Shown: in pieces, positions 6,201-57,814 of the stretch
How positions within the stretch are numbered: the first letter of the stretch is position 1
How the letters are laid out: every line of letters starts with the position of its first letter
NCBI GenBank assembly: GCA_051294905.1
Contig: CM119371.1
Location: 13,394,001 to 13,458,000, forward strand
From: Botryllus schlosseri
Lineage: Eukaryota
Direction: 5' to 3'
Length of the DNA: 64,000 bases
Program-made: the position numbers and the translations under genes
Notes under the pieces: generated by a model
What the model was told of the DNA's origin: nothing
The model's input: the letters and a program-made list of their open reading frames with translations, nothing else
Database searches by the model: none

Positions 6201-9200
6201 CCACCATCCTTACGAACAGAATAAAAAAGGTCCTCCCTGACATAACACACAAGCATCAACATGTCAACCCACCTAACAATATAGGACAGATAAACCTCCT
6301 GCTAAGGGAGATCTCGGCTCAAATGAGAAGTATAAAAAAAGGAGCAATCGTCTCTACCGACTTTGAAAAGGCATACGATTCCATAGATCACAGCTTCCTG
6401 CAACTGGTGCTCGAAAACTCAGGCTTTGGGAAAAACTTTCGAAATTTTTTCAAAGAAATATACCACCACGGAAAAGCTCATATCTCGATAGGAGGGAGGC
6501 TAGGAAATAGCATAAAGCTCGGCAGAGGAATCAAACAGGGGGATCCCATCTCCATGTTTCTTTTCACCATGGCAATCGACCCCCTCCTCAAAAAACTCAA
6601 CCATGAGCTGGATGGTTTCAAAATCCCAGGCATGAAAGAACTTATCGTCACGCCTTCGTACGCTGACGACGTCAACTTAACACTTGCACATCGGGCTGAC
6701 GTAAACGAAGCCCTGGATATAATACAAGATTTTGAAAAAGCCAGCTCCCTCAAACTCAACAACAAAAAGACCAAGGGTGTTAACTACCACCAAGAAACAC
6801 CACAAGCCATTAACACAGGACTCAAATGGGTGGAAAGAATGGAAGTCCTAGGACACGCCATACACAAGGGCCAACCAAACCCCCATAAGACATGGGATGA
6901 ACTCATGGCCAAAGCCAAGAATCTATTGGACGAAATAAAAAACCTAAAATTAGGACGGTGGAGGAGGCAAACCCTCATCACTACAAACATACTACCTATT
7001 TTCACATACGCAGCAGCCCTGACGAGAATGCCAAAAAGCACAAAGAGAGAACTGAAAAATGCCATCATAGACCTCCTATTCGGAAAAACAGCGAAACCGG
7101 AGTATGAAAAAATCATACAAAGAAAGGAATCGGGGGGCAGAGGGCTCTTGGACATCCCTACGATAACCGATACGATCTATATTAAGCCGGCAATTCAATA
7201 CCTGCGGAGCCTCGAGGAAAGAAACACCACGGACTGGAACGCGAGGCTGGAGCACCAACTCGCCTTAACGCTAAAATGGCTCACAGGCACCCCAATAGAC
7301 AATTCGAGACCCCACGCCTTACAACCGCTTGCTCATTGGGCCGAAGTTAACAAAACCATGAAGGAGCTGAAATTCGGAAAGGAGTACATCAGAAATGGGA
7401 AAAACAGGAAAATGTACGAAGAGTCCATAAGAAGAAACAACGCGAGAGCACTGAGTGAAATGGAGGGGCCTAAGTGGACTAACATACAGCACGTAGCCCT
7501 TACACATGACCAGAGAGATTTCAACTGGACAATCACGAGCGGTCTGCTACAGACGAACGTAAGTCTCCATGCAAGAGCCCTCAGCGACTCAAGAGAGTGT
7601 CTCCTATGCGGTAACTACCTGGAAACAATAATCCACGTCTTCATCCAATGCGAAATCACAACTGAACCCCGGGAAATCATCATGGAGGCTTGGGGGAAAG
7701 CGACGGGGAAATCAATCTCAACCAACAACATGCAAACAGTGATCAATATGGATCCAACCGAAGCCCTAACCGAGGAACAGGAGGCATCACTCGTGGTGCT
7801 CCTGACCTCGTACAAACAAGCCGTGTGGAGAGCTAGGAACAGAATTAAGTACGAAAAGAAGACAACCGGGAAAGTATGGATAATGAACTCAATAAAGCAG
7901 AGGCTCAGAACAAGGAGAAAACCTCAGGAAGAAGGGGAAACAGAAAAAATATTGGGGAAGGTCCAGGAAGATCTTTCTGGACCTCCCCGGGTGGCAACGA
8001 ACTGAAAAGAGCGCGTAAAAAGGCTACATGCAAGAGACCCTAGCTAACGCCATGTTTATCCTAGGGGATAATACATGCCGCGAGCGAAGGCCTAAAACAT
8101 CCAATGTTGAACGTTCCAAGAAAGCACACTTTGATCGAAGTTGTGCGTCTTGTTACTCAAGTAAACGTAGCATTTTATAAAGATTGTGATCTGCATTTTA
8201 GCAACTGACGCAGGTAAAATGACCACAGACTCTACAAATATTGATGCAATGTTCGAAAATATATTCCGTTACCGTGATTTATCCACATTGTTTAGGTAAT
8301 GTCTCATATAAATAATTAATGCAAACTAGTCAAAAACTACTTACAATACACTAAACCAGTGCTCTCCAAACTTTTTCAGGCACGACCCCTTGATAATAGT
8401 GAAAAATTTCGAGCCTACTTTTCGTCATATCAAAAAATTTAAAAAGAGCAACCAGAATGTTTGTAATAAAAACACTTTGTTTGTTAGCATGGACGGTTAT
8501 CACTATTGGTAGACCTCTCAAATATCAAATCTTAACTGTGAGCAGAGCAATATTTATGGGTTGGAAGCAACTCGCACCGCGTGCAAAAATAATTTCAGTT
8601 GAACATATTTTTCGAAAATAACCGCATGCACTCATTCAGCAGCGAATCCTAATTCAGAGACATCTTCCGATCGGAGCAAGGTCCGGTAAGAGTAACAATC
8701 TAGCATGGGAGTATGGATAGTACGACGCTAATATGACATTTAAAAATCACAATGTAATTATAATTGGGAATAATGCCGCTGTTAAAACTTGGATGTTTGA
8801 AGACAAATTAAACTCATTCCGAATTCATGAACGTCGTTTCTCTCGGAGGACTTCACCCCCTCCGATCCAGTTTGAGAACCACTGCCCTAAATAATCCAAA
8901 TTGTAAATGTTGTTTTGGTATTTATGGTATGTCTACGATGTTGGTTCATAACCTTGGTCAATATACTTTATTAGTTTTTTTTATTTATACTTATCGTTAT
9001 TCCAGATATTCCGATTTGCACCGCCTAGCATTCACTTTTGTTTTTGTGCTAGGTTTTAAAAAGACACTAGCGACACGGCTCACTTGGGTATTTAAAACGT
9101 ACGTATTTTTATTTCAAATACAGTCAAGTAAAAGGGAGTGCAGTTTGGAAAAATATTGGTATAGGTCAAACTTTACTTCCCCTTTCTTTTACGAGTCATT

Positions 9201-12200
9201 ATTTTGATAGAGTAGTGTTTAGGAAAAGACACAACTTACTTGCAACACATGGCAAATCGTAAATATGTAGGCCAAAACTGCAGAGCGTTGGTTCACAAAA
9301 AATATCCCGACAATCCAAGTTACACCCAGAAGACTGAGCAAAGCGGCCGAGGTTTTTATCCACTTTCTAAAAACATTGTTCGCATGTACAGATCAGTAGG
9401 CCTACTGCTACTGCAGGACGTGCTATCAGCAGCCGTACTTTATGCCGTCTTGTCGGGAACCACCACGAGTAATATGCTTGTTGACCACAGTCATCGCGTG
9501 AATGAGGAAGCATATATTCATGATTGTAACTAATATCACAGGTCCGGTAAAAGCCCATATTGTATTGTCTTGGGTATTCAACCAACAGCTGCAAGTGAAA
9601 GTGAAAATCATTAATTTGCGCCTGTAATGTTGGTCAGTTGGCATTTAAATTTGATGCCGATATGTAGGTGATATTAATTGACTGATCCACGGTTTTTAAC
9701 CATCTTCCTTGTTCAATGGTAATGTTATGTGCGGCTCAGGCTCTACAGAATCTTGTCGTTTTAAATTTCAAGCATTGAAGAGGACAACTAAATACGCATG
9801 CAAATTACCACAAAGAAAACACAGGTTAGCGTTAGAACAGGCCTGGGCAAAGTGCGGCCCGCCGAGCGATTCTGTGCGGCCCGCGAAAGGCTGTTTGAAA
9901 TTTAAAATATAAAACCTACTTTTTAATGTGGCTTCGTGGACTAATACCATACGATGTATAAACTGGACCGGAAATTCGTTTACTATCAAGCCTGCTCATT
10001 AACATACCGTGATTACGCAGCCTATAGCCTACCTACCAGGGCTTTGGAGCCGGAGCCCGGAGCCGGAGCCCCGGAGCCGTGCATTTTCACCGGAGCTGGA
10101 GCCGGAGCTCTACATAAAATTTAGCCGGAGCCGGAGCCGGAGCTGGAGCCCGTTATTTGAGGAGTAGCTCCGGCTCCGACCTATTTCATAAGATGCTATT
10201 ATATATGCAACAACCACATCTGCTGATTTATCATAATTGAACACCAGGCCTGAATTTTAATTCTGTGCAGAGCAATGGCATGGAGTAAATTGCGTTCTAG
10301 TGCAACTATGATGTTGTCGACAATTGACAAGTATTCAGTATGAAGTCACAAGCCGGCACGGCAGCACCTATATGTCTTTGTTGCTACATCGGATGTTACT
10401 GACGGCTGACGGACTCTAGATTACTATAGATAACTAGCCTATTAGTAGATTAGTAATCTATATAGACCAGGAATGGCCAACCTTTTCGGCTAAAGGGGCT
10501 CATGCAATTGACGAACGAGTGCGCGGTCCACTAGCCACGCCAAGCGGGTAAAATTTTCCAAGTTTATAAATAAACTAGGTGAGTATTGCGGGTCTATTGT
10601 ATACCACCCGCTAGGCTCAGTTTGCAAGAACACGACTATTCGGCGTCTGGACACATCGATATCGAAGGTCTCCGATAATATGCTACAATCATTTTGTGCC
10701 TACATTTCACCGTCGACGATTTTATGCGAGCGTAAACGCGAAAATACTTTTTTCCGTAATTGCGAATACAGTTAGACTCAATCGTGTAAATTAGGCGTTT
10801 TTTTCATTTTCAGTAGGGGGTAGGCTACCAAGCAAGAAATCGTGTGACAATTAAATACGCGTGTAGCGTGAAGAAAAATTTCGCTACTATTTTAGTTTAT
10901 TGTAATGTACGACGATTTACTGAAAATATGACTGGACCCGGGATCTGCCAATGCGTCGGAACTAATATTTTAGTCATCAACATCCCAAGTGTCGCAGCCA
11001 GAATTGTAATTTTTGGTTGGCATTGCAAGTTCACAATCTGAGTAATTCATTTTCGAGAATATAATAGGACATTACCTCGCGGGTCACGCAAAACCCTCTC
11101 GCGGGCCACATTTGCGGGCCACCCCTGATATAGACAGGACCATTCGATAATTTCAGAGCCGGAGCCGGAGCTGGAGCCGGAGCAGTGGTTATAATGCGGC
11201 TCCGGAGCTGGAGCCGGAGCTAATGTATGATAGGAGAGAGCTCCGGAGCCGGAGCTGGAGCAGTTTAAATTTACGGCTGCTCCAAAGCCCTGCTACCTAC
11301 CTCACATGCCTAATCCAGATTAAAACTTAAGTCGATGTAGCAAGTTATGCCGCTAGAATTAAAGTCACAAGAAGTCACCAAACCTTCTTTGGTGCCATTA
11401 TCACATTATGCATTACCAGAGGTCTCAAACACGCGGCCCGCGGGCCGCATGCGGCCCGCCAGAGCATTTTGTGCGGCCCGCGACGACATTTTTGATTTTT
11501 ATTAATTTGACAATCTATAAGTGTCACATATATCTTTTCAGGTTATAAAGTGTAAATTCCCTTTAAAATTGCTCTGAAGGCCTGAAACTATTCATCAAAC
11601 TTCACTATCGCATCAATTGCAAACGTTACCATTAGGGTTGTCTATAATTTGGAAAATCTCAAAATTTATGCGTATCCATGTCTCATTTTATAGATTATAG
11701 ATAAAAAACGTCAATGAACCTGCAATAAGGTCACAGGAAAGTCGTTAACATTTGTCTAAATGCTTTTGAAAGTAGCTGCCGTAGAGTGGGCGTGTCAGCG
11801 ACCATAGACCGGCAAGCACACTAGTAATCACGAAATCACGGCGCTTGATTGGCTAATCTGCTATGCTTTAATGATCACGACGGTGGCGGCTTGCTGATCA
11901 GCTGGTCAAGGAGTCGGCTAACGGCGGTGATTCTGTAAGCGCATTGTAGGTTGGTCCGCAGATAATGATTCAAGATTAATTCAGAACATGTTGAGTGACG
12001 AAATACATGATGAACAAAGAACAGCTGCTTCACAAAAACTTTAAATACATGACTTGATGGCTTATTGTGAAGGCAACCGTTGTAGCCTGTATGCCTTGTT
12101 TTCATCGAGGGAAAGCAAAAAAACATGAGAAGAAATATTGCAAAGGCGCTTATGCAAGTGGCGAACGAACTTCTAGTTTCAGAGGGGATGTTCCATGATT

Positions 12201-15200: not shown

Positions 15201-18200
15201 TAGAGTAACCTCCCTATTGGGTTTTTATCTATTGGTATTGGTACTTGAAAATGCGACCAGAAACTAATAAAAGTGAGGAAAATTAGTATATTAGGAATGC
15301 GAACCATTCGATATCACTAAAAAGAGTTCTAACGGTGGGTTTAACAAGACTTCAACTGGAAACTGAGCAGTCAACACAATGACTTGGACTCGGACTCGAG
15401 TCAATATCCTACGACTCGGACGCGAACCTCTGCTCGAGGACTTGGACTCGTACTTGACTCGGTGGCGAATTGAAAATGACTCGACTTGACTCGAGTCAAA
15501 ACTATAAAAGTAAGATTGACTTGTGACTCGGAACCTTGTGACTTGGTTACAACCCTGGGTAAAATTGAGTAGGCCACTCCGTGGGCTGAGAAAGGTTAAA
15601 AAATATAGCAATATATTTTTAATTACCAATATTATTGACCGATTGAATCATGAATCATGAATTAGGGCGCAGACGTTGCTAATTAGTGTATACAAGACAT
15701 CTCGTGCATGTCGAAGGGGGCTGGTATTGATAAAAAAAACGCAGGTAGGGGTGTAAAGAGAGTTTCAAATGTATCATGTTTAACATTTTGTTCAAAATAT
15801 AACGGTAAATATATATTTTTGGGTAATTAACCGTCACTTTGTCATGCCTCAGTATCAACAGATCCACTGAGCAGTGAGCACCAATTCATGTAATACACTG
15901 CTTCCAATTTTGAAATAAAATCAATACGCTGGATATTCCAAAATTTCTGACTCGGCCCGCCAGCATATTTTTGCTTCTCATTTGGCCCGCGGAGAAAAAT
16001 AATTGCCCACCCCTGCGTTAGAGTAATGGATTGCTATATGTCATCGATATTGATACCAATGTCACCTAAAGTATAAGATTTTAGCAAGTTAAAGCTTAGC
16101 CACTAGATGGCCTAGCGTTATGGTTTTACGTCCTAGCGTCCAGACGTGATAAAGTACTTAGCATTACTACTCCAGTAGCAATAGCTATTTCAGGGACATA
16201 ACAAAAGTAATTGGAGTAGAAAATTAAATGCCTGAAAGGTATTCAACTAAATTGTTTCAAAAGATAGATATGGTCGGGGCGTCACATAGTTATTCAGAGT
16301 GGGGGCGGCTAATTTCGAAATCGAAAGATGTTTCTTCGGGCCGAAAACAAAATGAATACAAAAACTACGTGCAGATCAACCCTTCGAAAATATAAACAGT
16401 TACCACGATAGGAATGGGATAGGAATACGACGTTGTATGTTGTTGCGGCATATGCAACCTCTCATGATACCCACACACACACGATCTGCGCGTATGCATA
16501 CCATGAGTTCGTGATGTACGTATGCCGCTGAACAGGGAAGATGCACAAATAGCCTTGTCAGGATTTCTAAATCTTGCGTCACCTCTACATGCTATCCCGG
16601 TAATGCTGATCGCTAAGCTGTTGAAGCCTGGAAACATCGATCGACAGTATATGACACCGACTCAAAAGATGTTTCACAAGCTGAAGAATGTTCAAGAAAT
16701 GCAATTTCTGTCAAGTGTCGAATCGGGCGACCCTCACCATGATCACAAAGCGCTACGATCTAGCAGACTCTGAGAACTAAATAATTCTAGCAGCATAATA
16801 AGATTAATTAGAGCGTAATGACAGTTATCTAATTATAATCTAACTTCTGAAATGTTTCAATGAAGAAATTGTGATTCCAACGTAATTTTACGCTTTCCTG
16901 AAAATGTCACAGAAGAACTCTATAGTGCGAAACGAGCCAATCATGGTGTACGGGACATTTGCTATTCACATTTGTTATTCCTATGAAAATGAATTCAAAT
17001 TTGATATGAAGTGAGCCATATGTTTGCGAATTAGATATCCTATTCGGATCAGAATGAATAATTATAATCTTAATGAAATTTGGAAAACCGAAAATTTCTC
17101 ATGTCATTTGACTTTGCGACATAATTATGCTGTAAAAATACAAAATTATTTTGCGTTCTTACGCCATTCTAGTACTCGTATACTCTACTGGACTAGGAGC
17201 TGGGTTTGGAATTGAATCAATCGAGTACTGACCACCTCTGCTCACGACCCTGTTTAGGTACCACTATCCAGACATGATTGACCCGGAACAATCGATGTTA
17301 TCGGAAAATCGAATCTCACTGTCTTTCCGTCCCATATCCGCCTGGCTGCAAAATTAATGTCACGCCGACTACAACAGCTGGTGTCAGGTAAGTCGCAACG
17401 TGGTATGAGACCAAACGGGAAACTGTTTCCAGTCCAAATACTTGACGCAATGACAGGTGGAGATGGTAGCCTTCCGTGCACATCCAACCGAAGACAACGA
17501 GGAACAGATAGTGAAGGCATATCGCGACTCCGGTGCATATCGCCTGCAAAATGAAGAACAAAAACATCGTTTCGTCGATTACATACAGCGCAGAGTACAT
17601 TGAACACTCTCGTATTCGACATTTCATGCTGGTTACGTCATATTTTGTGATACGATTGTTGATATACGACGTTCTTTTGAATTCTCTACTGGCTGCTGAC
17701 GATTACCCCTGACGAGTGTCAGCCGAAAATATTCGGGATTATTTCAATATGAATATTCCATTCAATTTTATCAATATTTTAGCCACTTGTTAGTAAATTT
17801 TCATGACGGCCAGGATAATTATTCTCGTGGTAGCATAAACATGTCTCTGAGAGGCCAAGATAGTGGGGTATCCGAAGGGTTAGGGGATCGTGCCCTCCTT
17901 TTCAAAATCCCTGAATTTAAGTTGCTCTCACGCCGGCGACCAACACCATTCGCTAATTCGAGCTACCCGCCAATGCGCTCCTCGAAAACTTGGATTCCAC
18001 GACACCTTGATCAAAGAGAATAGCAGACATGGCGACGCTTAATGCAGTTTTCAAATACCCATTGTCTTCCAGATCTACGCCATGAAATAAACTGCCTTGG
18101 AAGTGATATTCACAATTACAAATCCAAATTGAAAGCAACGCCATAGCTATCCATGTTCTTTATTGGTAAGTGATAGTTTTCTAGCACCACCGTAAAAATG

Positions 18201-21200: not shown

Positions 21201-24200
21201 TGTAGCATGCCAAAATGTCGAAGTATTACCAACTGGCGTACCAAATATTTTTAATTCTGTCACATTTAGCGTTTCAAGCAAGGAACCCTACCAACCGCTT
21301 ATCTGCAGCTTGCAACGGCATCGGTTACGCCAGTGATTCTTAACGTCTACGTCGCGAAGGGTATAAATTTTGGTCGCTACCGCACTAGCCTATCGCTTAA
21401 TGTACGTAATACTTGCATCACTTATTTTTAGATTGATCTATGATTGATCTTCTGCGGTGCCTTTGGTTATTTGCAGGTCCACTCTCTTCGATACCATAGC
21501 CAAAATTGTCGGTTTGATGTCACAATAAGATTGGTCTAACTCTAGATTTGTCTGCAAACCTCCAAATGTCGCGGTAAAGCGGTAAGTTGTCGTTTCCAGA
21601 TATATTGGAATCGCTTACACCAGCAGATATATTGGAATCGCTTACACAGGGGTGTCAAACTCAATTGATGTCGCGGGCCGGATTCAACACTTCAGGTCGC
21701 TTGCGGGACACACCAAAATTCTTCAATCCCAAAATACCTCAATGTCCATGCTCTTATTTATCTTTTGAATACTTCATTAACCAGCCTATATACATATTAG
21801 TATATTACATTATATTACGGATCCTAGGGGTTCTACTCTAGCTGCACCATTATATGCTGATTGGGAGACGGAATACAGTTATAAACCGATAAAATAGTGA
21901 CTTCAACGATGATATAACTTGTTAAATCTCGATGCTTCCTTTGTTTAAGTATTATATTGGCATCAACCCTGCGTATGCGTTGGCAGGAATGCAAAAGATT
22001 TAATTGTAAACGAGGACGTAGGCATTTGCTTCATATTATTTTACCGCGATTCAGGTTTCTCTGGAGGTCGGAGACCTCTATTCTACTTCCCATGTAACCT
22101 ATCAGGGTTTCACATTGGCGTTTTCGCTTCTGTGCTGTGAATAACTAGTTTTTGGTAGGTCGAATGAATTAGCACTGTCTTGCCTTCTCAGAATTGGGTG
22201 TCAATGCCAGCGACATGCTTCTTATGGTAACTAGAAACCACAACACCGTAGTCGGGTGATTATAATGTGGCCTATAAGCAACAAACATCCTCTAGATGTG
22301 CTCTCTTGAAGGACTAATTAATGGAAGTATTTCTTACTAAAAATATCATCATTTATTAGAAATGTGCTAGATAATACACTCATTTTTGAATTTACTCAGA
22401 ATTGCTTCGCGGGCCCGATAAAATCATCTGGCGGGCCAGATGTGACCCGCGGGCCGAATGTTTGACACCACTGGCTTACACGTACCAGACGCGTTGTGGA
22501 GAGATGGCGCAGTGGTATGATCCACGGCTGCAACACCAATGGGTGCGGGTTCGAGTCCGACCGAGGTCGACTTCCGAATTCCGATACCTAAGTGTTGGAG
22601 GTTTACCTAGGCTCCTCCTCGCCACCACATCCGCGTCAGCGGTGTCTTACAAAAGCCTAGAGGCCGTGCTATAAGTCGGCAGTTACGGAAAATAAGAAGA
22701 ATATCGGCCTGGTGTAAATGACCATAGTAGTCGACAAACACCATGAATACCCCAAAACAAACACGTACCAGACGAGACTAAAAGAATATGTCCTTTTGTG
22801 AGACGAACACGATTTAAAATTGGTATTTGACATGGAACTCAATATTTTCCTCGGCGGGTGTCATTCGATGAGTGCGGCTCAAGCTGTGGGTACTTGAATA
22901 CTCGGCTCTGATTATTACGGCACCTGGCGATTGGGCATATCCATGCCTAACGTTTCAGCGATCATGCGTCGGGTATACTACTTTCAACTTGTAGCGTACT
23001 TTGTGGGCCAACCGTTGTAAACAGCACATTGTGTGCTTATTGTGAATCATAAACGGTCACACAAAACCTGGTATCATACTTGACCCACCGCATATCCCAG
23101 TGGCGGCTCGTCCTATAGGGCAACTGGGGCATTGCCCCACCTAAAATTCTGTTCAATAACAATTCATTACCATTTATAGACGCACACCAATCTATATATA
23201 CCGAAATCACAGCGAAAATCGTATTTTTCTTGTCCTTTCGCTTGTAAATGCCCATATATAGCGAAGTCTCAGCGAAAATTGAATTCTCTTCTGTGTTTTC
23301 GCTTTGCGAATGCCTAGCCGGGGCATGCCCCGGTAGCGCTCATAACAAGCTTTCACTGTCTATTCTCTCAAAGTCGCGCACAATAAAGAAACGGTGGTTT
23401 ACTCTCTCCTATTCATAAAATTACCGAGCAACCGGGGCACAATAGCTCTGTGCCCCTAAGGTGTGATGTAACAATCGTATCTATAGCTGAACTCGGTTAC
23501 CGTCATATGCGTTTAGTCGACCTTTGCTGGTATAGGTCGATTTTGATGGTGTTTTACACCATGAAAACTCTTGAAACTTGGTATGTCATGTCGTGATGGT
23601 GGTATTTAACACTGCCCCAAGTTTCAGGGTTTCTACTTAAAGTTTAGGGCAGTAATTCCGTTTCCGAAGTTGATTGTGTGCTGATCCGTCATGTAGCCTA
23701 TCGCAAACAGATTTTACTCAAAAGCCGGTATTGGTATCCATTGATTTTGACGATGTTCAATACTGAGATCGGTTATGACATTTGGAACGGTAAGTCTTAA
23801 TGTTAGTATCGAACGCTGTACCAAGTTTTAAGTTTGTCACTGAACTGTGTTAGTGGTAATTTCGTTTCCTAATTCGAGTGAGAGCTGACTCGTCATTTAT
23901 CGCTAACAGATTATACGCAAAGCCGGTATTGGTCTCTATTGATTTTAACGATGCTCCTTACCTAGATCCGTCATAAGCTTTTGCACGGTATGTCTTGATT
24001 TTAGTATCGAACGCTGTGCCAAGTCTCAAGGTTGACACTCAATGATTAGAGCAGTAATTTCGTTATCAAGGTCGAGTATGGTAGAGATGTGCTCCGATCT
24101 GACAATTTAGCCTACAACGCATTGCGGATTTCACGCAAAAGCCGGTGTATCTGCGGTAACGTTAACTGAGATGATGATATCATTCTCAATTTGCATTCAA

Positions 24201-27200
24201 ATATTAACTTTAATATTATATTCTCCAATGTCAATTTCACCGTGAAATTGTGGCCTTCAAGCCATTTGCTTACAACCCCCTGTCAAGCGCGATAGCTATT
24301 TCGTTTTCGATGGCGGCTAACAGCTGATCACTTGATCAGCCTATTCCTCAGTAAATTTTACAATTAAATAGTATATTCATATTGAAATGAACCCGAATAT
24401 TTTCGGCTGACACTCGTCAGGGGTAATCGTCAGCAACTAGTAGAGAATTGGAAAGAACATTGTATATCAACAATCGTATCACAAAATATGACGTCACCAG
24501 CATGAAATTTCGAATGAGAGAGCGTTCAATGTACTATTTTTAGGTGATACACGAACTCCTTTTGTTGACAGAGTTTTGGTTGGTGTATTTTGATAAAAGT
24601 TGATTCCAAGGCACACAAATGGAATTGTGAACGGCCTCGACCTACGATTCGAAATCGGTCGTCTCGATAATTATTCGCACAAATCGGATTATCCAACAGA
24701 TGTTTGCCGATGGCAGAATTAATTGCCTTTGATCGATCAGCATCAATCTTAAGTGGATGAGTTAAGGGTGAGCTTTTCACATCGCGTGACGCACGTGTTC
24801 TGATAAATCTGGGGACATGTTGGTTTATGCGGTCCTGCAGACGTCTTGACGTTCTTCCCACGTAGCCACAATCACAGTGGCACCTATATTCGTACACTAC
24901 ATTACTTTGTTGAAGTGCAGGAAGCACGTCTTTGCGTGTTGAAGGGAGCAGTTGTGTTGTTGTAAAAATCACATTGGTTTTGACTGTATCGTAACATTTA
25001 CCTACAGCAGAAATCAATTGTTTTTCAAAGCGGGTGGAAATGGGGCCAATCCAAGGTAGATGGATATAAACATCTTTTATTGTTCGTGCGGTGGGCTCTG
25101 TTCGTTTTTCTGCGTTGAATTGCGTTAATTTCCTCTCCATGCCGCGGCTGATGACGTGTTCAGGGTAACCGTTATCAAGTAAGATTTTTCGGATGTAGTC
25201 AAGTTCTAAACTCAGTTTGTTACCCGAACATATCATCAACGCTCTATGCACGAGTGTGCCTATGAGGTTAATTTTTCTGCGCCGAGGACTAAATGAATTC
25301 CAGCGAAGGTATTGGCCTGTGAATGTCGGTTTTCTGAAAACAGACGTTTCAAATTTGTTGGTATTGCGCTTTTCAACTAATACGTCCAGAAATGATAATG
25401 AGTTATTGCGTTCTTTTTCTATTGTGAATTGCAAGGCCGGGTGAAGCGAGTTTAAGCGAATGAGAAATTGGTCACACTCCGATTCATTCCTGAAAATGAC
25501 AAATGTATCATCTACGTATCGGCGGTACAATAGTGGTTTGGCGGACTCACGCTGGGACAGAAGCTCGCCCTCGTAATACCCTACGAAAATATTGGCCAAA
25601 ATAGGTCCCAGGGGACTTCCCATGGCTAAGCCGTCTATTTGGCGAAACATGACCTCGTTAAAGCTAAATTCCACGCAGCAAGTTGCCGCTTGTAAAAGTT
25701 CAACAAAGACGTTACGCGGGATTGATGGTGGCGGTAACTTACCACCGTACAGCGCGTTGGCACAAATATCAATAGTCTCATGCAGCGGAACGTTCGTAAA
25801 AAGACTAGAGATATCAAATGAGCTCAGAAACACGTCTGGATTCGGCAAATCCAGGTTTCGTATTTCACCAGCGAACGTGAACGAATCGCGAACACATTCC
25901 GTGCCGTACAATTCCCGAACCGGTTCCAAAATGTCAATAAGCCATTTTGCCAGCTGATGGTGAGCAGACCCGATCATGGAAAGTATAGGTCTCACTGGGA
26001 CATTGTCTTTGTGAGTTTTTGGCAGTCCGTACATGCGTGGTCTTTGCGATCCCGTCGGTCTGATGGCGCTGTATGTTTCTGCCGTTAGGACACCGTTTTT
26101 CTTCAATGTCAGCAAACGGTTGGTCAGTCGTCTTTCAATTTTAGGTGTATTATCAAATTCCGAAACCGAACCAAGCGAGATAAATTTGGTTTTGTCATGC
26201 AATATTGATTCCATTTTCGAAATGTAGTCAGCTTTGTTCAGAATGACAACACCGGATCCTTTGTCTGGTTTGGTGATGTGGATTTCAGGGTTGGATCGCA
26301 ATGCTTTGATGGCTAGGAAACACTCTTTGTTCATCAGGAAGTCCGCCTTGTCGACCGGGCATCCACAATACGAATGCGCCAAATCTGATAACCGAGCTTT
26401 GAGAGCAGGTATACCCTCGTCTGATTTAGGTTCGTGGTGTTTTAATTGGCCGAGGAGAACTTCAAATTCCGCAAATACCTCCTCATTCTTGACAGTGGTA
26501 GGCGGCAGGCAAAAATTGAGCCCATGGGATAAAACAAATTCTTCAGTCGGGCTTAGCTTATGATCTGATAAGTTGAGTATATTCTTCTTGCTTGGACTTG
26601 CATTGCTACCGAATCGCTGGCTAACTAAGCGGTTAATGCCACGTTCGTTCCTTGTTGAATTCTGCTTTTCTTTGATAGTATCTATCGATGCCAAATAACG
26701 GCAGAAGCGAAATAAGTCGAAGAACGACAGGATTGAACGTACTTCCTTCTGCAGCGATCGACAAACACGGCGGAGAGTAGTAACCAACTTCTCATTCTTC
26801 CCAATCTCGTCATATAAAAACGCTTGTTCCATTCTAGGATTGAGGCGGGCGCGTGATTTTTCTATCCTGCTTTTGATAAATGCTGGTAACGTCTTTTTTG
26901 CGATACAAGCCTTCAAAAAGGCTGTTGTTGATACCGCAGTTCTCAATCTTCCCCTAGTCTTTATCAGCTGGTTTAGGATACGCAACTGACTTTCACTGTA
27001 CCGCTTTCGGAAATATTTGAAGAGCTTCTTGGAGGTACAGAACTTCAATATACAATTAAATAGTATATTCATATTGAAATGAACCCGAATATTTTCGGCT
27101 GACACTCGTCAGGGGTAATCGTCAGCAACTAGTAGAGAATTGGAAAGAACATTGTATATCAACAATCGTATCACAAAATATGACGTCACCAGCATGAAAT

Positions 27201-30200
27201 TTCGAATGAGAGAGCGTTCAATGTACTATTTTTAGGTGGTACACGAACTCCTTTTGTTGACAGAGTTTTGGTTGGTGTATTTTGATAAAAGTTGATTCCA
27301 AGGCACACAAATGGAATTGTGAACGGCCTCGACCTACGATTCGAAATCGGTCGTCTTGATAATTATTCGCACAAATCGGATTATCCAACAGATGTTTGCC
27401 GATGGCAGAATTAATTGCCTTTGATCGATCAGCATCAATCTTAAGTGGATGAGTTAAGGGTGAGCTTTTCACATCGCGTGACGCACGTGTTCTGATAAAT
27501 CTGGGGACATGTTGGTTTATGCGGTCCTGCAGACGTCTTGACGTTCTTCCCACGTAGCCACAATCACAGTGGCACCTATATTCGTACACTACATTACTTT
27601 GTTGAAGTGCAGGAAGCACGTCTTTGCGTGTTGAAGGGAGCAGTTGTGTTGTTGTAAAAATCACATTGGTTTTGACTGTATCGTAACATTTACCTACAGC
27701 AGAAATCAATTGTTTTTCAAAGCGGGTGGAAATGGGGCCAATCCAAGGTAGATGGATATAAACATCTTTTATTGTTCGTGCGGTGGGCTCTGTTCGTTTT
27801 TCTGCGTTGAATTGCGTTAATTTCCTCTCCATGCCGCGGCTGATGACGTGTTCAGGGTAACCGTTATCAAGTAAGATTTTTCGGATGTAGTCAAGTTCTA
27901 AACTCAGTTTGTTACCCGAACATATCATCAACGCTCTATGCACGAGTGTGCCTATGAGGTTAATTTTTCTGCGCCGAGGACTAAATGAATTCCAGCGAAG
28001 GTATTGGCCTGTGAATGTCGGTTTTCTGAAAACAGACGTTTCAAATTTGTTGGTATTGCGCTTTTCAACTAATACGCAATAACTCATTATCATTTCTGGA
28101 CGTATTAGTTGAAAAGCGCAATACCAACAAATTTGAAACGTCTGTTTTCAGAAAACCGACATTCACAGGCCAATACCTTCGCTGGAATTCATTTAGTCCT
28201 CGGCGCAGAAAAATTAACCTCATAGGCACACTCGTGCATAGAGCGTTGATGATATGTTCGGGTAACAAACTGAGTTTAGAACTTGACTACATCCGAAAAA
28301 TCTTACTTGATAACGGTTACCCTGAACACGTCATCAGCCGCGGCATGGAGAGGAAATTAACGCAATTCAACGCAGAAAAACGAACAGAGCCCACCGCACG
28401 AACAATAAAAGATGTTTATATCCATCTACCTTGGATTGGCCCCATTTCCACCCGCTTTGAAAAACAATTGATTTCTGCTGTAGGTAAATGTTACGATACA
28501 GTCAAAACCAATGTGATTTTTACAACAACACAACTGCTCCCTTCGACACGCAAAGACGTGCTTCCTGCACTTCAACAAAGTAATGTAGTGTACGAATATA
28601 GGTGCCACTGTGATTGTGGCTACGTGGGAAGAACGTCAAGACGTCTGCAGGACCGCATAAACCAACATGTCCCCAGATTTATCAGAACACGTGCGTCACG
28701 CGATGTGAAAAGCTCACCCTTAACTCATCCACTTAAGATTGATGCTGATCGATCAAAGGCAATTAATTCTGCCATCGGCAAACATCTGTTGGATAATCCG
28801 ATTTGTGCGAATAATTATCGAGACGACCGATTTCGAATCGTAGGTCGAGGCCGTTCACAATTCCATTTGTGTGCCTTGGAATCAACTTTTATCAAAATAC
28901 ACCAACCAAAACTCTGTCAACAAAAGGAGTTCGTGTATCACCTAAAAATAGTACATTGAACGCTCTCTCATTCGAAATTTCATGCTGGTGACGTCATATT
29001 TTGTGATACGATTGTTGATATACAATGTTCTTTCCAATTCTCTACTAGTTGCTGACGATTACCCCTGACGAGTGTCAGCCGAAAATATTCGGGTTCATTT
29101 CAATATGAATATACTATTTAATTGTATATTGAAGTTCTGTACCTCCAAGAAGCTCTTCAAATATTTCCGAAAGCGGTACAGTGAAAGTCAGTTGCGTATC
29201 CTAAACCAGCTGATAAAGACTAGGGGAAGATTGAGAACTGCGGTATCAACAACAGCCTTTTTGAAGGCTTGTATCGCAAAAAAGACGTTACCAGCATTTA
29301 TCAAAAGCAGGATAGAAAAATCACGCGCCCGCCTCAATCCTAGAATGGAACAAGCGTTTTTATATGACGAGATTGGGAAGAATGAGAAGTTGGTTACTAC
29401 TCTCCGCCGTGTTTGTCGATCGCTGCAGAAGGAAGTACGTTCAATCCTGTCGTTCTTCGACTTATTTCGCTTCTGCCGTTATTTGGCATCGATAGATACT
29501 ATCAAAGAAAAGCAGAATTCAACAAGGAACGAACGTGGCATTAACCGCTTAGTTAGCCAGCGATTCGGTAGCAATGCAAGTCCAAGCAAGAAGAATATAC
29601 TCAACTTATCAGATCATAAGCTAAGCCCGACTGAAGAATTTGTTTTATCCCATGGGCTCAATTTTTGCCTGCCGCCTACCACTGTCAAGAATGAGGAGGT
29701 ATTTGCGGAATTTGAAGTTCTCCTCGGCCAATTAAAACACCACGAACCTAAATCAGACGAGGGTATACCTGCTCTCAAAGCTCGGTTATCAGATTTGGCG
29801 CATTCGTATTGTGGATGCCCGGTCGACAAGGCGGACTTCCTGATGAACAAAGAGTGTTTCCTAGCCATCAAAGCATTGCGATCCAACCCTGAAATCCACA
29901 TCACCAAACCAGACAAAGGATCCGGTGTTGTCATTCTGAACAAAGCTGACTACATTTCGAAAATGGAATCAATATTGCATGACAAAACCAAATTTATCTC
30001 GCTTGGTTCGGTTTCGGAATTTGATAATACACCTAAAATTGAAAGACGACTGACCAACCGTTTGCTGACATTGAAGAAAAACGGTGTCCTAACGGCAGAA
30101 ACATACAGCGCCATCAGACCGACGGGATCGCAAAGACCACGCATGTACGGACTGCCAAAAACTCACAAAGACAATGTCCCAGTGAGACCTATACTTTCCA

Positions 30201-33200
30201 TGATCGGGTCTGCTCACCATCAGCTGGCAAAATGGCTTATTGACATTTTGGAACCGGTTCGGGAATTGTACGGCACGGAATGTGTTCGCGATTCGTTCAC
30301 GTTCGCTGGTGAAATACGAAACCTGGATTTGCCGAATCCAGACGTGTTTCTGAGCTCATTTGATATCTCTAGTCTTTTTACGAACGTTCCGCTGCATGAG
30401 ACTATTGATATTTGTGCCAACGCGCTGTACGGTGGTAAGTTACCGCCACCATCAATCCCGCGTAACGTCTTTGTTGAACTTTTACAAGCGGCAACTTGCT
30501 GCGTGGAATTTAGCTTTAACGAGGTCATGTTTCGCCAAATAGACGGCTTAGCCATGGGAAGTCCCCTGAGACCTATTTTGGCCAATATTTTCGTAGGGTA
30601 TTACGAGGGCGAGCTTCTGTCCCAGCGTGAGTCCGCCAAACCACTATTGTACCGCCGATACGTAGATGATACATTTGTCATTTTCAGGAATGAATCGGAG
30701 TGTGACCAATTTCTCATTCGCTTAAACTCGCTTCACCCGGCCTTGCAATTCACAATAGAAAAAGAACGCAATAACTCATTATCATTTCTGGACGTATTAG
30801 TTGAAAAGCGCAATACCAACAAATTTGAAACGTCTGTTTTCAGAAAACCGACATTCACAGGCCAATACCTTCGCTGGAATTCATTTAGTCCTCGGCGCAG
30901 AAAAATTAACCTCATAGGCACACTCGTGCATAGAGCGTTGATGATATGTTCGGGTAACAAACTGAGTTTAGAACTTGACTACATCCGAAAAATCTTACTT
31001 GATAACGGTTACCCTGAACACGTCATCAGCCGCGGCATGGAGAGGAAATTAACGCAATTCAACGCAGAAAAACGAACAGAGCCCACCGCACGAACAATAA
31101 AAGATGTTTATATCCATCTACCTTGGATTGGCCCCATTTCCACCCGCTTTGAAAAACAATTGATTTCTGCTGTAGGTAAATGTTACGATACAGTCAAAAC
31201 CAATGTGATTTTTACAACAACACAACAGCTCCCTTCAACACGCAAAGACGTGCTTCCTGCACTTCAACAAAGTAATGTAGTGTACGAATATAGGTGCCAC
31301 TGTGATTGTGGCTACGTGGGAAGAACGTCAAGACGTCTGCAGGACCGCATAAACCAGGGGTCGGCAACCTTTTGCTAGTCGCGGGCCAAATTTCGGGTGT
31401 ACAATCTTTGGCGGGCCGGATTGTTTCTTAGTACTATATTTTACGCTCACTTCGGTATATTAACCTACATTGCTGCAATCTCAATCATACCAATCCGAAG
31501 TCACATGTACTTACACTTCAACGACACAGAATAATTGTGACAATTGACGCAGCTTGCTTTGTGAAAGGTTTTCAACTTCTGGAAACAAGTCAGATGAAAC
31601 AAGAATCAGACCCTATTCAAAATGGACGTCCGAAATACGTGATCTTAGCTTGCTCTTCGTGAATTTCATTGTTCAAAGCTGTTGTTCACATGCGTACGTG
31701 CTTCCAAAAATCGATGCAATTTCTTTTGCATTGCTGGTCAAGCTGGGATAAAGACCAATTTCAAGAACGTAGTCTTTGTCAAAGTCATGCAGCGATATGC
31801 TCTTTGTATAAAATTTGTCATTCAATTCAACTGCATCGTATTTCAAAAAGGCCCATTTGAAATTTTCAGGCAATGGTATTGGCGTCCACATTAAACAGAG
31901 TACTGAATAGTCAGAATTCATTTTGTAGAGAAGGAATGTCGGAAAAGAGGGTGAATATTCAGTAGTTAAATTTCGTATCACAGTTACAAATGTAGTGTTG
32001 GTACTAGGTTTTCTCTCCTCCAGTATAGGAAAGTGAGCATAATTTTCTTTGTACTGTTGACATTTCCAGAGTCACAGATTTGTTTTGAATGCGCCTCAAC
32101 ATCTCATGTAGTTGTTTTCCCCTGAAGTTCCAAGTTCAATTTGTTCAGATGTGACGTTGAGAGTTACCCATTTTCGATTACAAGATTATGTATGAGTCGG
32201 CGATATTTGTATTTTCGAGGAAAGTTGCTATTTCATTTCTCAGTTCATACACTCGTGTAAGTATAGCTGCTCTACTCAATGAGCGAACATGACAGATATA
32301 GGCCTACATGACATCGCCATATTGATTCTCTGCTTCTAGTAATATCTGGCGTAACTGGTTCAGTTGATTAGACAAAAATCATATACAGTTTTCACCATTG
32401 TGGCTAATACACTATACAGGTTTTTTTGTCTGGGCACACAATGGCTTCTGGAAAATCAAACTATAGACAGGCTAACTAACATACGGAGGCTATATAGTTA
32501 TCTATAATTGAATAGTTTGAAATTCCGTCATTGCGTCTTGAGATGCTCCAAGCGTTTTTTGAAGCAAAGGAAGAACACGTTTATTGTCACACCCCGTTAG
32601 AGTGATTAACCTTTAAAAAAGCCTGGAACACCTTCGGTTGCGAGATACACCCGATTGATAAGCACTGATCCAGTCTAGTCTATCTCCATCTCCTACTTCA
32701 ACCACCTTCGTTTTATGGCGTAACAATAGACTAATACGATGTATAGGCTACTAATATATTGTAGCAATGCATCTTTTTTCATGCAGCGCTGCACTGCAGA
32801 TTGAAACTCATTATGAAGCGGCGGGCCGTATTCTTGTGATTACTAATTATTATGTCGCGGGCCGGACGATTTCGCTTGGCGGGCCGGATCCGGCCCGCGG
32901 GCCGTAGGTTGCCGACCCTTGGCATAAACCAACATGTCCCCAGATTTATCAGAACACGTGCGTCACGCGATGTGAAAAGCTCACCCTTAACTCATCCACT
33001 TAAGATTGATGCTGATCGATCAAAGGCAATTAATTCTGCCATCGGCAAACATCTGTTGGATAATCCGATTTGTGCGAATAATTATCGAGACGACCGATTT
33101 CGAATCGTAGGTCGAGGCCGTTCACAATTCCATTTGTGTGCCTTGGAATCAACTTTTATCAAAATACACCAACCAAAACTCTGTCAACAAAAGGAGTTCG

Positions 33201-36200
33201 TGTATCACCTAAAAATAGTACATTGAACGCTCTCTCATTCGAAATTTCATGCTGGTGACGTCATATTTTGTGATACGATTGTTGATATACAATGTTCTTT
33301 CCAATTCTCTACTAGTTGCTGACGATTACCCCTGACGAGTGTCAGCCGAAAATATTCGGGTTCATTTCAATATGAATATACTATTTAATTGTATATTGAA
33401 GTTCTGTACCTCCAAGAAGCTCTTCAGTAAATTTTACGCAAAATTCGGTGTTGGTCTGTTCGCATTAATTTTGACAGTGTACCATACCGAAAGGGCCATG
33501 AGGCCACTTCTCGATGATGTCATGTAACAGTGTACTAAGTTTAAAGCTTTCATCCACGTATTTATTCGGTAATATATTTTCCAAAGGCGATTTCGCAGCA
33601 GACCTATAGACAGTAATAAAGCCGTGTGTGTCGTGTTGCAGTCTCCAGTTTCAAGGCCAAAATCTCCTATGCTGTACCGAGACCGAATTTCCGAGGCTGC
33701 TCTTCTTAGTTCTTCAGAATGATGTTTTGGATTCAATATGACAGGCCCAATCTATGAGATAACAATTGCGTATCTGTCCGAACTCGTTGACATTTCCAAT
33801 TAGGCTTACGCTATCTCTCGAGTTATAGTCATTTCCAAGTCTAGTGCGAACATGAACCGTGTTGAATCTTTGTTCCGTACGCCGTTTACGCAGTTACCAC
33901 ACTTCAAGTCACAGCTCACCAGCGGACCTCTCGTGGCACATACGTTAAAATCACTGTTGCCGGCAAATTCATGTTACCGTACCATCATTACGTTACTTGT
34001 TTACGTTGAAAAGCTTCTTGGAGGTACAGAACTTCAATAAACAATTGAACAGTATATTCATATTGAAATGAACCCGAATATTTTCGGCTGACACTCGTTG
34101 GAAAACGCCATTGTGACGTCATCTTAATAAAAAGTCGCTTGCAGCCCTGCCCCACCACCCGATATTGTCACGAGCCGCCACTGGCATATCCTAACTGAAG
34201 CAAGTCTGCGTGGGCATCGGTTTTGGCAAGTTTTCCATGTAACAATTGGTCAGTTTTGAAGTCCAAAAAAGATTTTATCCGGTCAAACTACTACCCTGCA
34301 ATTTGGAGATAAGCCAGCTGCGATTAACACCAGTGGTTTCCAACCTGTGTCACCTCACCCCCCCCCCCCATATTTACGGTCCGAAAAATATAGCACATAA
34401 ACGGGAATTTATTCACTGGACTCTCATCGATGGTGCAGTGAGTATGAAAAGATCATTTTTCCGACTAGGTGCTCGGAAAACCGGTTTACGCGTTCACTCT
34501 CCGTTGAGTTTTCGCTCCCTATCGCTACCCAGTCGTCCCTATGGGATTTTCCGCACCTTGTTTCTCAAAATGGCCCACCAGGGGATGCGATTTTGCCCAC
34601 GTTGGGAGCCAATGAATTAACAGCTAAAATGTATGCAACGCATTGACCACATCTGCTTTTTGGAAATACGTACGTGGGAAATTTTCGGACATACTTTATA
34701 GACTTCTACTTGAAGCAGTTTCGAAAAGTCTTGCAAATCATTACCTCTACTTCTACTTGAGTATTAACGATGACTACTGGACAGCGTCTGATTATATCCT
34801 AATCTTTGTCGCTGGAACAACGCCACATTCATTCATGCATTCATTCATTCCCAATTTCATTCCCTTTCATCAGTTACATACTGTGTTCGCTATACTATTA
34901 TCAAAGTGAGCTATACATTCTATATGCGATTTCCAACCCACGACGCGCTTGACATCAGTCTGCATGATTCACACCCGCCATTATAGGCTACTTACCACAA
35001 CGCCGACGGTATCCATTAATATTGCGAAGTTGGTTAAGTGATTACATTCGCATTCTGTTCGGTTGCCATCCGTGTGCAATACTCTGCACCCTTTCGAGGA
35101 CCAAAACCCTGGGAATGTGTTTCCAGCTATGCGGTGACCTTTTTCCCAGTATACACATCTGGGAAAGTGATATATCAATGGCCGATTAGGTGAACTGACT
35201 GGCTAAGCGGTGAGTATATCATCCACATTGAGTGTATATTTCGAACATCAAAATTGAAGAAATCCCGTCGTGAATATCTAAAGATCACTGCTAGCTGGTA
35301 TGTGGAAGCTCATGGAATCATGGAAATAAAACTGGATACAGTCATTGATACCTCTTGTTCAATTCAATATTGCCAATCCCATTTTTGAAAAGCAGGGCTG
35401 ACATCCACCATGAGCATGGATTCCGAATAGTAGTTGAGAAAAAGAGAACATCAACATTATAACCGAATTTGAATTTTATCTGAATTCGAACGTGGGAATG
35501 GATTTTTTATTAATAATTGATCATTATCATTTCAATGCTACTATTGGAAAACCTGATCAAAATGAACTGGTGTATCTTACTCATTTACACCAACTGGAAC
35601 GGTTGTGAGGGCCGAATTACATACCAGGAAGTACCGCCTGAATGATTTGCACCTCAGGCTGTGGTAAAGATTTCGTACATAGTACTATTTCCACCCATTC
35701 ATTTCCATAAGTCATCATCCATAGGATTTGTTAAGATTGCAGTGAAGCTGAATTCTAGAATCCGGCTTTCAAGCAGGAGAGTATTTGCAATTCATTTGTA
35801 GCAAGCGGATTCGGGGTGGGGTTGGGAAGTCAGTCCTGCACTACAAACCTCGGACTTATTAGACCTTTGGTTATATTTCGCTTCGTGAGTTTCTGGTAAA
35901 ACTGTTACCCTACAAGCAAGACACGAATTCAAAACGCACATAACCGAGGGTATACAATCACTGAAACAATACTTACTTTACACCGATGATATTGGCCTCA
36001 ATATGTTCCTTGTGTTGCAATGATATAATCACTTTCTCTCTTTTGAACTGCCCGGCATAAGCTGGTCGTATGGATGCCGCTAAAATTCTGGTCACAATTT
36101 TCGATGTCGACGTTGCATTTTCAATACTTTCATTGACAGGATTTTGTGGTGCTTTCGCAAATGTTCTGCCTTCTGAAAATAAGTCCCAATCGATCAGTAC

Positions 36201-39200
36201 ATGTGAGCAAATACCACAATGTATGTAAATGGATCAAAACCTCACAAATATAATTTCTTTATTCGCAATTGAATAACATATTTATATTGAAATACGCCGA
36301 AATGTTTTAGCCTGACACTCGTCAGGGGTAATCGTCAGCAAGTTAGCATGAATATGTTATTCAATAGTATTGAAATCCCATCTCTTCAAATTATTCAGAA
36401 TTAAAACAATAAGTACTCCGGCTTGAAACACTGCTGTTGTAAAAGAGGAGTATTTTAAAGTTACGCTGAGTGTGTGATTCAACAATGCATAGCCTACTGA
36501 CTGTCTGGAAACATCCGTGCACTTGTTATTAAAGCACACCAACGACCAGCATAAATGTTAACGTCATGCAGAAAGCAAAATCACTCAAGAATATACTTTT
36601 CTCACGCAGCAGCCGTTCCAAGCTCTCGTACAAAATGAAAACAATGTCAACTTTTCCGCCCACAATAGGTTCTACAGGTATCAACGCTGATCCATACTTC
36701 GCAATGCTTGAGGATATGTTTATTCTCTTTATGGCAGCTGTGGCGACACATGACGTCATCTGGAATAAGTGATGAATAATACTTCAATTTAAAATAAAAT
36801 TATATATGTAATAATTAATTGCCTAAAGATGAATGAATGGTAACATTGGAATCATGGCGTATATAATAGTGCATTAGGTCGATTGTGCCTTTGGCGCTGA
36901 ATTATGCAAGATTTCTACATCGTCATGGTCACATATGTTCATAAACTGAAGAGTTTTATGGTGGAATTCGTGAATTATCATCTTTTGTCTTCTGCTAGAA
37001 TACATCTCACTTCACGCTCGATTTCCTTCACCCTATTGCAACTAGACCAGTGACTCCTATCCTCTTGGAAACCACTGAACCACCCGACAATCACCATATG
37101 TATGCCTTCATTGAATTCTTCGTAGTTGGAAAATTAAACTGTTCTTCTTTCAGTAATTTTATATCAGGCTAAGCGTAAAAAAAACGGAATGAAATGCGTC
37201 TTTATTTCATTATCACAGTTATAGAAGATTTGAATTGTAATCTAGTTAAGGCACTGTAATCCACAACAAATCATTCAGGAAGATAAAAATCGACATATTT
37301 CCGAACAATTATAGCCCAGCGACACGGCAACGAGTGATTCACACCGAGTTTCCAATGAGCGGCAATGAAGTGTCAGGACGAAATGAACCAGTTACCTTTT
37401 AGGAGATAATTTAAGGTTTGCCGGACTTCAGATTGGTAAATGCCACTTTCATATCATTTTTGTAGCAAAATCTGCTGCCTTCTTTCATTTTCATATTACT
37501 CATACACGTGTAGGACTGATCTAGCAGACATCTTGAAGCAAACGCTATTGGCATCTCAAAGCCTTGACATCCGACAAACCCCTGAGACTGATTCACTGAT
37601 ACTCTTGAATTCGATCGCACCCGTATTAAGAACCATTGGAGCAGACATTTAAATTTGAGGATAAATAATATCGGGTTAACATACGACCCGGTAATTAAAT
37701 AAGCTGGTTCGAGGTTCGGAACTAGAAGATTGCTGTCATTGCAACATTCATTCCATTATTACATAAATTGATATAATAAATAGAATTCAGGCATACCTAT
37801 CTAGTTTTTGCCATACAAGTGGAAGTTCCTGAAATTCTGGACCTGTCAGCCTTCGCCAACCAACAATAAAGTCCAAACTGTGACTCAATAAACCTACACG
37901 ATATATTAAAACAGTGTATTTGCCGATTTCCACCAGCTCGTAAACTGCATACCAAGTAAATAGCACTTTCTCGCGCAGAAACTTATCCCAAAAGTATTTT
38001 CGACTTATCAAAATCCAAAGTTCAAACAGTAAGTATAGTTGTGCCTAAATAACTGTTCATGCAGAAATAGAATTACTTTAACGGCGAAAACGCTTGAGCA
38101 AGTATTACAGGTAGGCAAAACCGACTTGGGTAATAGAAAAAAATCGAAATACTTCGTGACGGATCACCTATGATAAAGATCGAGTCTCTGTGCCAACATC
38201 ATACCTGAATCACCGCATTTGACCCCATCAAAATCTCAGTCTTGGTGTTGTTAAAAAACGACGCTTGTAAAAAAGCTGCGCTTTCTAGAGTGTTAGATAT
38301 CAGTTCTCCGTGACTTGAAATATTCTGAAACACGGAAGGTTTAGGCGTTTTGTCCCGGTCTTCTACGATGAACGTACATGGGATAGCGCCCTTACGTGTT
38401 GCAGTTCATCCCAAGCTGCCGAATTCCTCTCGCTGAGCAGGCCGTCGACCGTTTTCACAACAGATTTGGCAATTTCGCCGGCAACTTTTCCATCACGTAC
38501 AACCCCCGAGGACGCAAGCTCTATCAATCTGCGGGAAAACATCAAATACTCGTGAACGTATTGAAAACAGTGATTCTCAAACTTATCAGAAGGGTTTGTT
38601 TAGAAACGCGGGTTAATGAACGTGAAAGTCGCAGCCTGTTTTCATGAATGATTATTATTTGAGCACTTGATTAATATATATATACTTGATTTACGATTTC
38701 CGTCATGAAAATCTTTTTTTTCCCACTGTTATCTAGCTCAAAGTAAAGTATACATTCTGGCTGGAGTGCTGGGTTCGTCTCAGGGCCCAATCGCGTATTT
38801 TGTCCTCTAATTTAGAACTACTCACGACCCTCATTTCAATGCACGAAATGACAATATAAGTTCCGAACGAATTCATTTATGGTATCTCTTGTTGATAATA
38901 AGGGTGACAACATTGGTTGTCGATTTTTAGAGAATTTGCATAAATTGATTCTGGAATGTAAGTGATTTGAAAACATAGATGGTAATAAATGTTTTTCCAA
39001 ATGTCATAAAATTAAATATGTAATATCCTAGAAAAAGATGTAACTACAGTCGACTCCACTTCATTCCAGCATCGGATAGCCCGGATGACCGCTTTATTCG
39101 GTCAAAATGCTCAGAAACGGAAAAAGTGAAAATTACAAGTAAAAAACGCCGGTTGATTCGGACAATTATCCGCTGAATTCGAGCACAGGTTGCAATTTCT

Positions 39201-57702: not shown

Positions 57703-57814
57703 TTGCGACTCTTGGTGCAAAGCGGTGTATAATTTAGGTACAGGATAAAAACAACTACCCTTACTACTCAACTGAAATTATAACAATTGAATAGCAGGTC
57801 TTTTTTCTTTTTTG

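Follow-up and report, generated by a model that had tools for sequence, protein, structure and literature searches.

The window analysed here is a stretch of 64,000 nt from Botryllus schlosseri (GenBank assembly GCA_051294905.1, contig CM119371.1, forward-strand positions 13,394,001 to 13,458,000), and the block from 24359 to 33426 within it is one insertion of a Penelope-like element (PLE), consisting of two head-to-head arms. The best explanation is that each strand of a staggered cut in the target acted as primer for copying from one of two fixed positions in the element RNA, on a template that was likely a ligated circular monomer; we put the probability of this account at roughly 0.45. 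A single insertion, two start windows, one for each arm, a stagger of 12–13 bp, copying across the predicted ribozyme cut and the grouping of units by locus are direct results, and the circle itself is the least secure step. The locus in the window is an ordinary, young PLE insertion.

On both sides of the block lies a 14-bp direct repeat, the target-site duplication (plus strand, 24348–24361 and 33424–33437). The same 14 bp are single, with the flanks joined, in 10 of the 11 fetched paralogues of the host repeat, and because of the duplication and these empty sites the two arms are the product of one insertion event, not two. The left arm (minus strand, 24359–28076) is 3718 nt or 1.38 units long and comprises a 990-nt 5'-truncated unit, one full unit and a short (A-type) tail. 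The right arm (plus strand, 28074–33426) measures 3778 nt or 1.40 units, once a later 1567-bp insert and its 8-bp duplication are subtracted, and is made up of a 1017-nt 5'-truncated unit, one full unit and a long (B-type) tail. The arms meet at a head-to-head junction (28074–28100) formed by a 3-nt overlap (28074–28076) and 24 nt unique to the right arm. The unit is exactly 2692 bp, a 2547-nt open reading frame (ORF) plus a 145-nt spacer: at that lag the left arm matches itself at 1024 of 1026 bases, with no mismatch at the unit junction. Across the four unit copies there are five single substitutions in all, none of them mirrored in both arms. The predicted ribozyme cut falls after 29090, with mirror positions at 27087/27086, 24395/24394 and 33357/33358, and the tails run 36 nt past it in the left arm (+1 to +36, 24359–24394, minus strand, start window A) and 69 nt in the right (+1 to +69, 33358–33426, plus strand, start window B). 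Since the final 3 nt of each tail (the last three of the left copy of the duplication, the first three of the right) are common to the element and the target, the unambiguously RNA-derived tails are 33 and 66 nt long. The original prediction, made from the sequence of the window, had given this unit with its seamless joins, arms of about 1.4 units and tails of 36 and 69 nt, and all of these values hold.

What do the tails look like elsewhere in the genome? A 39-nt motif that straddles the cut has 2,495 exact matches, and its upstream 28 nt have 3,920; the sample comprised, out of the 2,495, the 100 that come first in positional order, together with 20 regions with the upstream motif only and 40 with the downstream motif only. 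The tails of 175 arms fall into two windows, about +33 and +69, with 83 ending at +10 to +43, 90 at +59 to +77 and two at +55. These 175 arms are not all independent, because some PLE ends ride as passengers in other repeats; 38 head-to-head pairs have distinct flanks. Every one of the 38 pairs has one short and one long tail, an outcome with a chance of 3 × 10^-12 if tails were independent. A second PLE family (for example L270, L213, L268 and L269), with a 2700-nt unit, 112 exact ribozyme matches, a U3-A8 core and a protein 68% identical to that of the window family, follows equal insertion rules, with short/long pairing in 19 of 20 two-armed insertions. As a side observation, nine loci (L161, L162, L165, L168, L170, L173, L175, L177 and L192) are one old two-armed insertion that was amplified inside another repeat family.

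The target duplication is 12–13 bp long in 27 of 32 insertions, a set made up of the window, 24 of the positional pairs and seven long loci chosen for their score; a duplication of at least 9 bp was required, which left outside the set six of the 38 pairs taken by position as well as some other insertions. Target and element overlap by a mean of 1.6 nt at the short end and 2.4 nt at the long end, against 0.87 nt in a shuffle of start positions, and the overlap is zero at 9 of 32 short ends and 7 of 32 long ends. The start is set by position, not by homology, and the earlier suggestion that microhomology sets the priming site finds no support in these figures. The distribution of tail lengths across genomic copies, which had been named as a check, shows two windows rather than free lengths. 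The tails had also been taken as the signature of a circle; they mark instead two fixed start windows, and a purified PLE has such windows on linear, uncleaved RNA as well (PMC11167929). The short-tail arm extends further upstream in 19 of the 38 pairs, and in 19 of the 38 neither arm contains the other, so that both arms must have been copied from RNA. A few long pairs (the window, L100, L131 and L133) have arms that end less than 30 nt from each other.

The predicted cut does not interrupt copying. Of 131 matches to the 24 nt that directly follow the cut, only 2 begin at the cut itself. Among near-full arms, defined by full coverage of +90 to +390 and at least 91% identity, with 40 of 107 candidates scored, 14 of 15 run across the upstream cut; none stops there, and one stops at +21. 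With so few arms starting at the cut and near-full arms crossing it, the working template was either uncut or re-ligated, and the part of the original prediction that had the template continue past the cut and exceed a unit is borne out. No fixed 5' end is seen in the upstream partial units, whose ends are scattered over a range of about 40 nt to 3.6 units. A peak of 5' ends at −25 (nine arms) was considered as a start site and rejected, as these arms are copies of a single old insertion that travels within another repeat. Four near-full arms (L073, L204, L205 and L206) all end between +239 and +244 of the unit, and it may be that the enzyme there ran into RNA that was structured or bound by protein.

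Copies longer than a unit are rare. The window family has at least about 10 such loci, against its 3,920 exact ribozyme matches, and the expectation that a two-ribozyme master copy is recreated at every insertion fails on this count. Both arms exceed a unit only in the window and at loci C12 and C6 among those fetched. Where there are several units, adjacent ones share locus-specific variants, and the remaining differences are private singletons: at the C3 locus four substitutions and a 9-bp deletion are present in both units; at C6 the units differ at 0–1 positions in up to 2692 nt and by about 8% from the next locus; and in family 2 identity is 98.8–100% within loci and 96–97% between them. 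The C12 locus is older and too diverged for clear grouping. A 3.6-unit array exists on C16 (L062, G000:C16:20948366-20960757), paired with a 0.5-unit arm. That short arm carries a 1.4-kb insert at unit position 2257–2266, which matches the insert site of the window right arm, and the haplotypes differ.

Two loci hold arrays of mini-units derived by deletion, of 359 nt (L071, G000:C1:37767500-37769050) and 326 nt (L072, G000:C9:10465400-10466650), with four and three junctions, each set inside one locus; these junctions occur nowhere else as arrays in the assembly. As in L208, the breakpoints lie near +210 to +222 and −116 to −147. The grouping by locus and the private mini-arrays together indicate that one monomer was used repeatedly, whether by way of a circle, of homology jumps or of homogenisation at the DNA level. 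It is possible that the mini-unit arrays are snapshots of the birth of retrozymes.

The motif on which a circle would depend, best described in the internal copy of the right arm (plus strand, 29061–29094; core at 29065–29071, predicted cut at 29090/29091), has the minimal features of a type I hammerhead: a CUGAnGA, GAAA and UH core, a stem I and a palindromic stem III. Stem II has only about 1 bp; its 7-nt loop could pair with a stretch further upstream, and this complementarity likely represents a pseudoknot replacing stem II. The other copies are the terminal one of the left arm (minus strand, 24391–24424), the internal one of the left arm (27083–27116, within the 145-nt spacer at 27073–27217, minus strand, which is the core of the pseudo-long terminal repeat or pseudo-LTR) and the terminal one of the right arm (plus strand, 33328–33361). 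The ribozyme layout is preserved in family 2, where U3-A8 replaces C3-G8 and stem III has another palindrome; since core and stem III covary in this way, the ribozyme is likely under selection. A core change of the U3-A8 type has already been described for Schistosoma PLEs in part of PMC4209133. To judge from sequence, the hammerhead motif is likely real, and self-cleavage is predicted. We also noted that the loop after the core is complementary to sequence just upstream of stem I (29050–29080 and its mirrors), both being conserved in family 2. The fold of the ribozyme and tail region is no better than that of shuffles (z −0.6 to −1.5), and the hairpin predicted between the start windows (about +34 to +74, plus strand, 29124–29164, −6 kcal/mol) is thus a weak lead.

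How might such an insertion come about? The element protein, probably as a dimer on one RNA, would nick both target strands with a stagger of 12–13 bp. Each 3' end would then be extended from its own site, at about +33 or about +69, with 0–5 nt of pairing helping the start and not placing it. Each cDNA would run for an independent length, here 1.4 turns, and the two cDNA ends would be joined head to head via a few bases of overlap. The circle would be formed by ribozyme cleavage and subsequent ligation; since one and the same monomer would be copied at each turn, the upstream pseudo-LTR would be rebuilt with an identical haplotype in the rare insertions that exceed a unit. A fuller version is doubtful as a whole: coupled asymmetric twin priming by a dimer on one ribozyme-made circle, with starts about 36 nt apart and a 12–13-nt staggered cut, where rolling copying would rebuild the promoter-bearing pseudo-LTR and deletion circles would spawn mini-arrays.

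A number of points weigh against paired priming on a circle. Arm lengths are uncorrelated (Spearman 0.16, p 0.33, n = 38), so there is no proof that both arms derive from one RNA molecule, and lockstep copying of the two arms was rejected as a rule. One family 2 insertion (L231) has two short tails. At L069 (C17), one of 11 multi-unit loci compared, a terminal block of about 270 nt has a foreign haplotype, a feature unexpected under a pure circle, and gene conversion could also have made adjacent units alike. Folding places the monomer motif in two hairpins that hide the core, and Rfam does not recognise it as a hammerhead: in a scan of 24000–36600 every match was to a hairpin microRNA model, lay at the palindromic centre and failed to reach the gathering score. 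In four raw RNA runs (3–6% of each) circular RNA was not seen, although short reads cannot separate a circle from a tandem. Depth in these runs reached the hundreds across the ribozyme region, with reads from either strand, and was about 0–5 over the ORF; 62–96% of the reads matching the element run on into unrelated sequence, mostly representing short passenger copies. There were no ends at the predicted cut and no pile-up of RNA ends elsewhere, the full element being barely covered. For PAc, a Poseidon element of Anolis studied in vitro, ribozyme mutants left insertion unchanged, unprocessed linear RNA was the main substrate, and the two strands did not differ in start site (PMC11167929). 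Naiad PLEs, finally, form tails and partial tandems of the same kind although they lack a canonical hammerhead (PMC8557442).

Several of these points suit a tentative, quite possible alternative, in which the RNA is never cut: on a linear transcript with a pseudo-LTR at both ends, copying would start internally and jump from the 5' part to the identical 3' part, within the same or another molecule, and so yield seamless tandems. The ribozyme would have its role elsewhere, for example in freeing a translatable 5' end, the start codon lying 15 nt downstream of the predicted cut. The substrate and internal initiation of PAc (PMC11167929) and the tandems of Naiads, as reported in part of PMC8557442, are what this account would lead one to expect; the haplotype switch of L069, about 190–240 nt upstream of the terminal cut, fits a jump; and jumps do occur, as internal deletions with short homology attest. 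Locus-wise grouping of units is predicted here as well. On the other hand, neither the 175 arms nor the arms longer than a unit show a pile-up of 5' ends at a fixed start, the 3.6-unit and mini-unit arrays would demand several exact jumps in succession, and the foreign terminal block is limited to that one locus of the 11.

It is improbable that the template was a linear multi-unit RNA made by read-through of a longer genomic tandem, with tandems arising and being homogenised at the DNA level by unequal exchange, gene conversion or insertion of the element next to itself. This scenario was put forward in PMC11167929, which favours multi-unit read-through RNA as the template; a longer tandem source had also been named beforehand as the finding that would overturn the circle. 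Such an array does exist, on C16, and assemblies may collapse or miss others. However, the C16 array was rejected as the source of the window on haplotype, since it differs from the window at seven sites common to all its units, and among the 40 of 107 candidates scored no other long copy has the window allele at +365. Under linear inheritance, furthermore, upstream units would form one lineage and downstream units another, whereas the observed grouping is by locus, and for neither mini-unit array does the assembly contain a source array; read-through thus fits poorly. As for the idea that one arm is cDNA and the other its DNA copy, made by fold-back of the cDNA end, it is very improbable: the window would suit it, with arms that end 27 nt apart, overlap by 3 nt and have the left-arm sequence wholly inside that of the right, and palindromic junctions are interpreted as self-priming in part of PMC3846280, but the 19 pairs in which neither arm contains the other refute it as a general rule, it gives no reason for a second arm ending in the other fixed window with a 12–13-bp duplication, and it is silent on lengths greater than a unit.

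The protein fits the assignment to PLEs. From the first ATG at 29105 (mirror 27072) to the stop, the ORF encodes 848 aa; it is intact in the left arm (minus strand, 24526–27072), with a reverse transcriptase (RT) followed by a C-terminal GIY-YIG-type endonuclease, and is disrupted in the right arm by the later insert (31355–32921), which has 15-bp terminal inverted repeats and an 8-bp duplication and which by these we take to be hAT-like. The RT domain matches RVT_1 of Pfam (E 7.8e-9); the GIY-YIG match is weak (E 0.03, below the cut-off). Atlas neighbours at 0.97–0.98 carry RVT_1 and HTH_animal, plus GIY-YIG in one set, and a search of PDB with the element protein gave weak RT matches only and no telomerase match. 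A single ORF with RT and then a C-terminal GIY-YIG domain, albeit a weak one, stands here with a partial tandem of the pseudo-LTR, an inverted 5'-truncated partner, a tail and a target duplication; by this sequence layout the element is classed as an endonuclease-containing (EN+) PLE of the Penelope/Poseidon type. It is not a non-LTR retrozyme, the unit of which is 170–400 nt and non-coding, as opposed to 2692 nt with an intact 848-aa ORF. It does have retrozyme-like traits: two tandem ribozymes, spaced 2692 nt apart, bound the monomer in both arms, and copies longer than a unit appear to come from one monomer sequence, a pattern that homology jumps or gene conversion predict equally.

The surroundings of the insertion are repetitive. 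The host of the PLE is a high-copy repeat, 1.8 kb or more in length (window about 23097–24361 and 33424–34010), with paralogues 95–98% identical and an internal degenerate tandem of about 200 bp. Contigs that run from the left flank into the right were considered as insertion polymorphism; because the flank is repetitive, they are paralogous empty sites rather than evidence of polymorphism. Ends like those of the 1567-bp non-autonomous insert recur at about 21650–22470, and four more short or decayed ends of the PLE lie at 17594–17771, 34000–34098, 36266–36341 and 57812–57957. An intact two-ORF LINE-type element (2996–8005, plus strand), with a 520-aa ORF1 and an 1148-aa endonuclease-RT, sits between 1.6-kb direct repeats at 703–2322 and 8110–9725.

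How does this insertion compare with known systems? In LINE-1 twin priming, each strand of the target primes copying of the RNA, and microhomology links the two products head to head; the outcome is an inversion with no duplicated sequence, and it is homology that determines the second site. Here, in contrast, the 3' sequence is present in both arms alike, and each of the two sites is fixed. A partial tandem, large inverted repeats and a tail at one end are the classic PLE layout, as set out in parts of PMC2377424, PMC3846280 and PMC8557442. With Penelope of Drosophila virilis (PMC2377424, legend to Fig. 1C) and Pen2a of Adineta (part of PMC3846280), the window element shares the ORF with RT and C-terminal GIY-YIG, the 5'-truncated upstream copy, the inverted 5'-truncated partner, the one-end tail of 30–40 nt, the target duplication and the hammerhead motif in the pseudo-LTR; it differs from both in that each of its arms is longer than a unit. 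In the parts of published PLE accounts consulted, the one-sided tail is present only "often" or "optionally", as against the strict pairing (38 of 38 and 19 of 20) and 12–13-bp stagger found here. PLEs need the partial tandem for transcription, and its regeneration, for which passages of PMC2377424 see "no obvious mechanism" and passages of PMC8557442 invoke "still undefined features", is the question that the counted rules address.

The closest experimental parallel is PAc, in which two internal start sites define the tail and both strands are cut and extended in vitro (Frangieh et al. 2024, PMC11167929); a dimer is predicted, targets are AT-rich and homology dependence is small. The window family likewise has AT-rich targets, two internal start sites within the start of its ORF and little dependence on homology; unlike PAc, it has a slight excess of microhomology, and its start sites are closer to the cut and the start codon. 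Pairing within one insertion is left unaddressed in the consulted part of the PAc study (PMC11167929). The two start sites and uncleaved templates (2024) are already published, as is the circle: ligated circles, as templates for PLE copies longer than a unit, are proposed in the Discussion of PMC4209133 (Cervera and de la Peña 2014). The literature searched, outside which fall most subscription papers and the PLE reviews of 2005–2006, contained neither a circular RNA of an autonomous PLE nor counted short/long pairing. What a young, abundant family adds is a set of countable rules, namely strict pairing, the 12–13-bp stagger, no stop at the cut and locus-wise units, which narrow the field to two models, a circle or a homology jump, and with the intact ORF of the left arm a second element is available for the in vitro assay already published. 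As in retrozymes and the circular PLE model (parts of PMC4209133, PMC7229834 and bioRxiv 10.64898/2026.07.22.740005), two tandem type I hammerheads bound the monomer, and the 359- and 326-nt mini-arrays share the size and layout of retrozymes, although they are single loci and not families. Animal retrozymes, for which RNA circles have been demonstrated (part of PMC7229834), derive from PLEs according to part of the 2026 preprint (bioRxiv 10.64898/2026.07.22.740005); the window element differs from them in being autonomous, coding and 2692 nt long. If true, a circular template would tie an autonomous, telomerase-related retrotransposon directly to the retrozymes.

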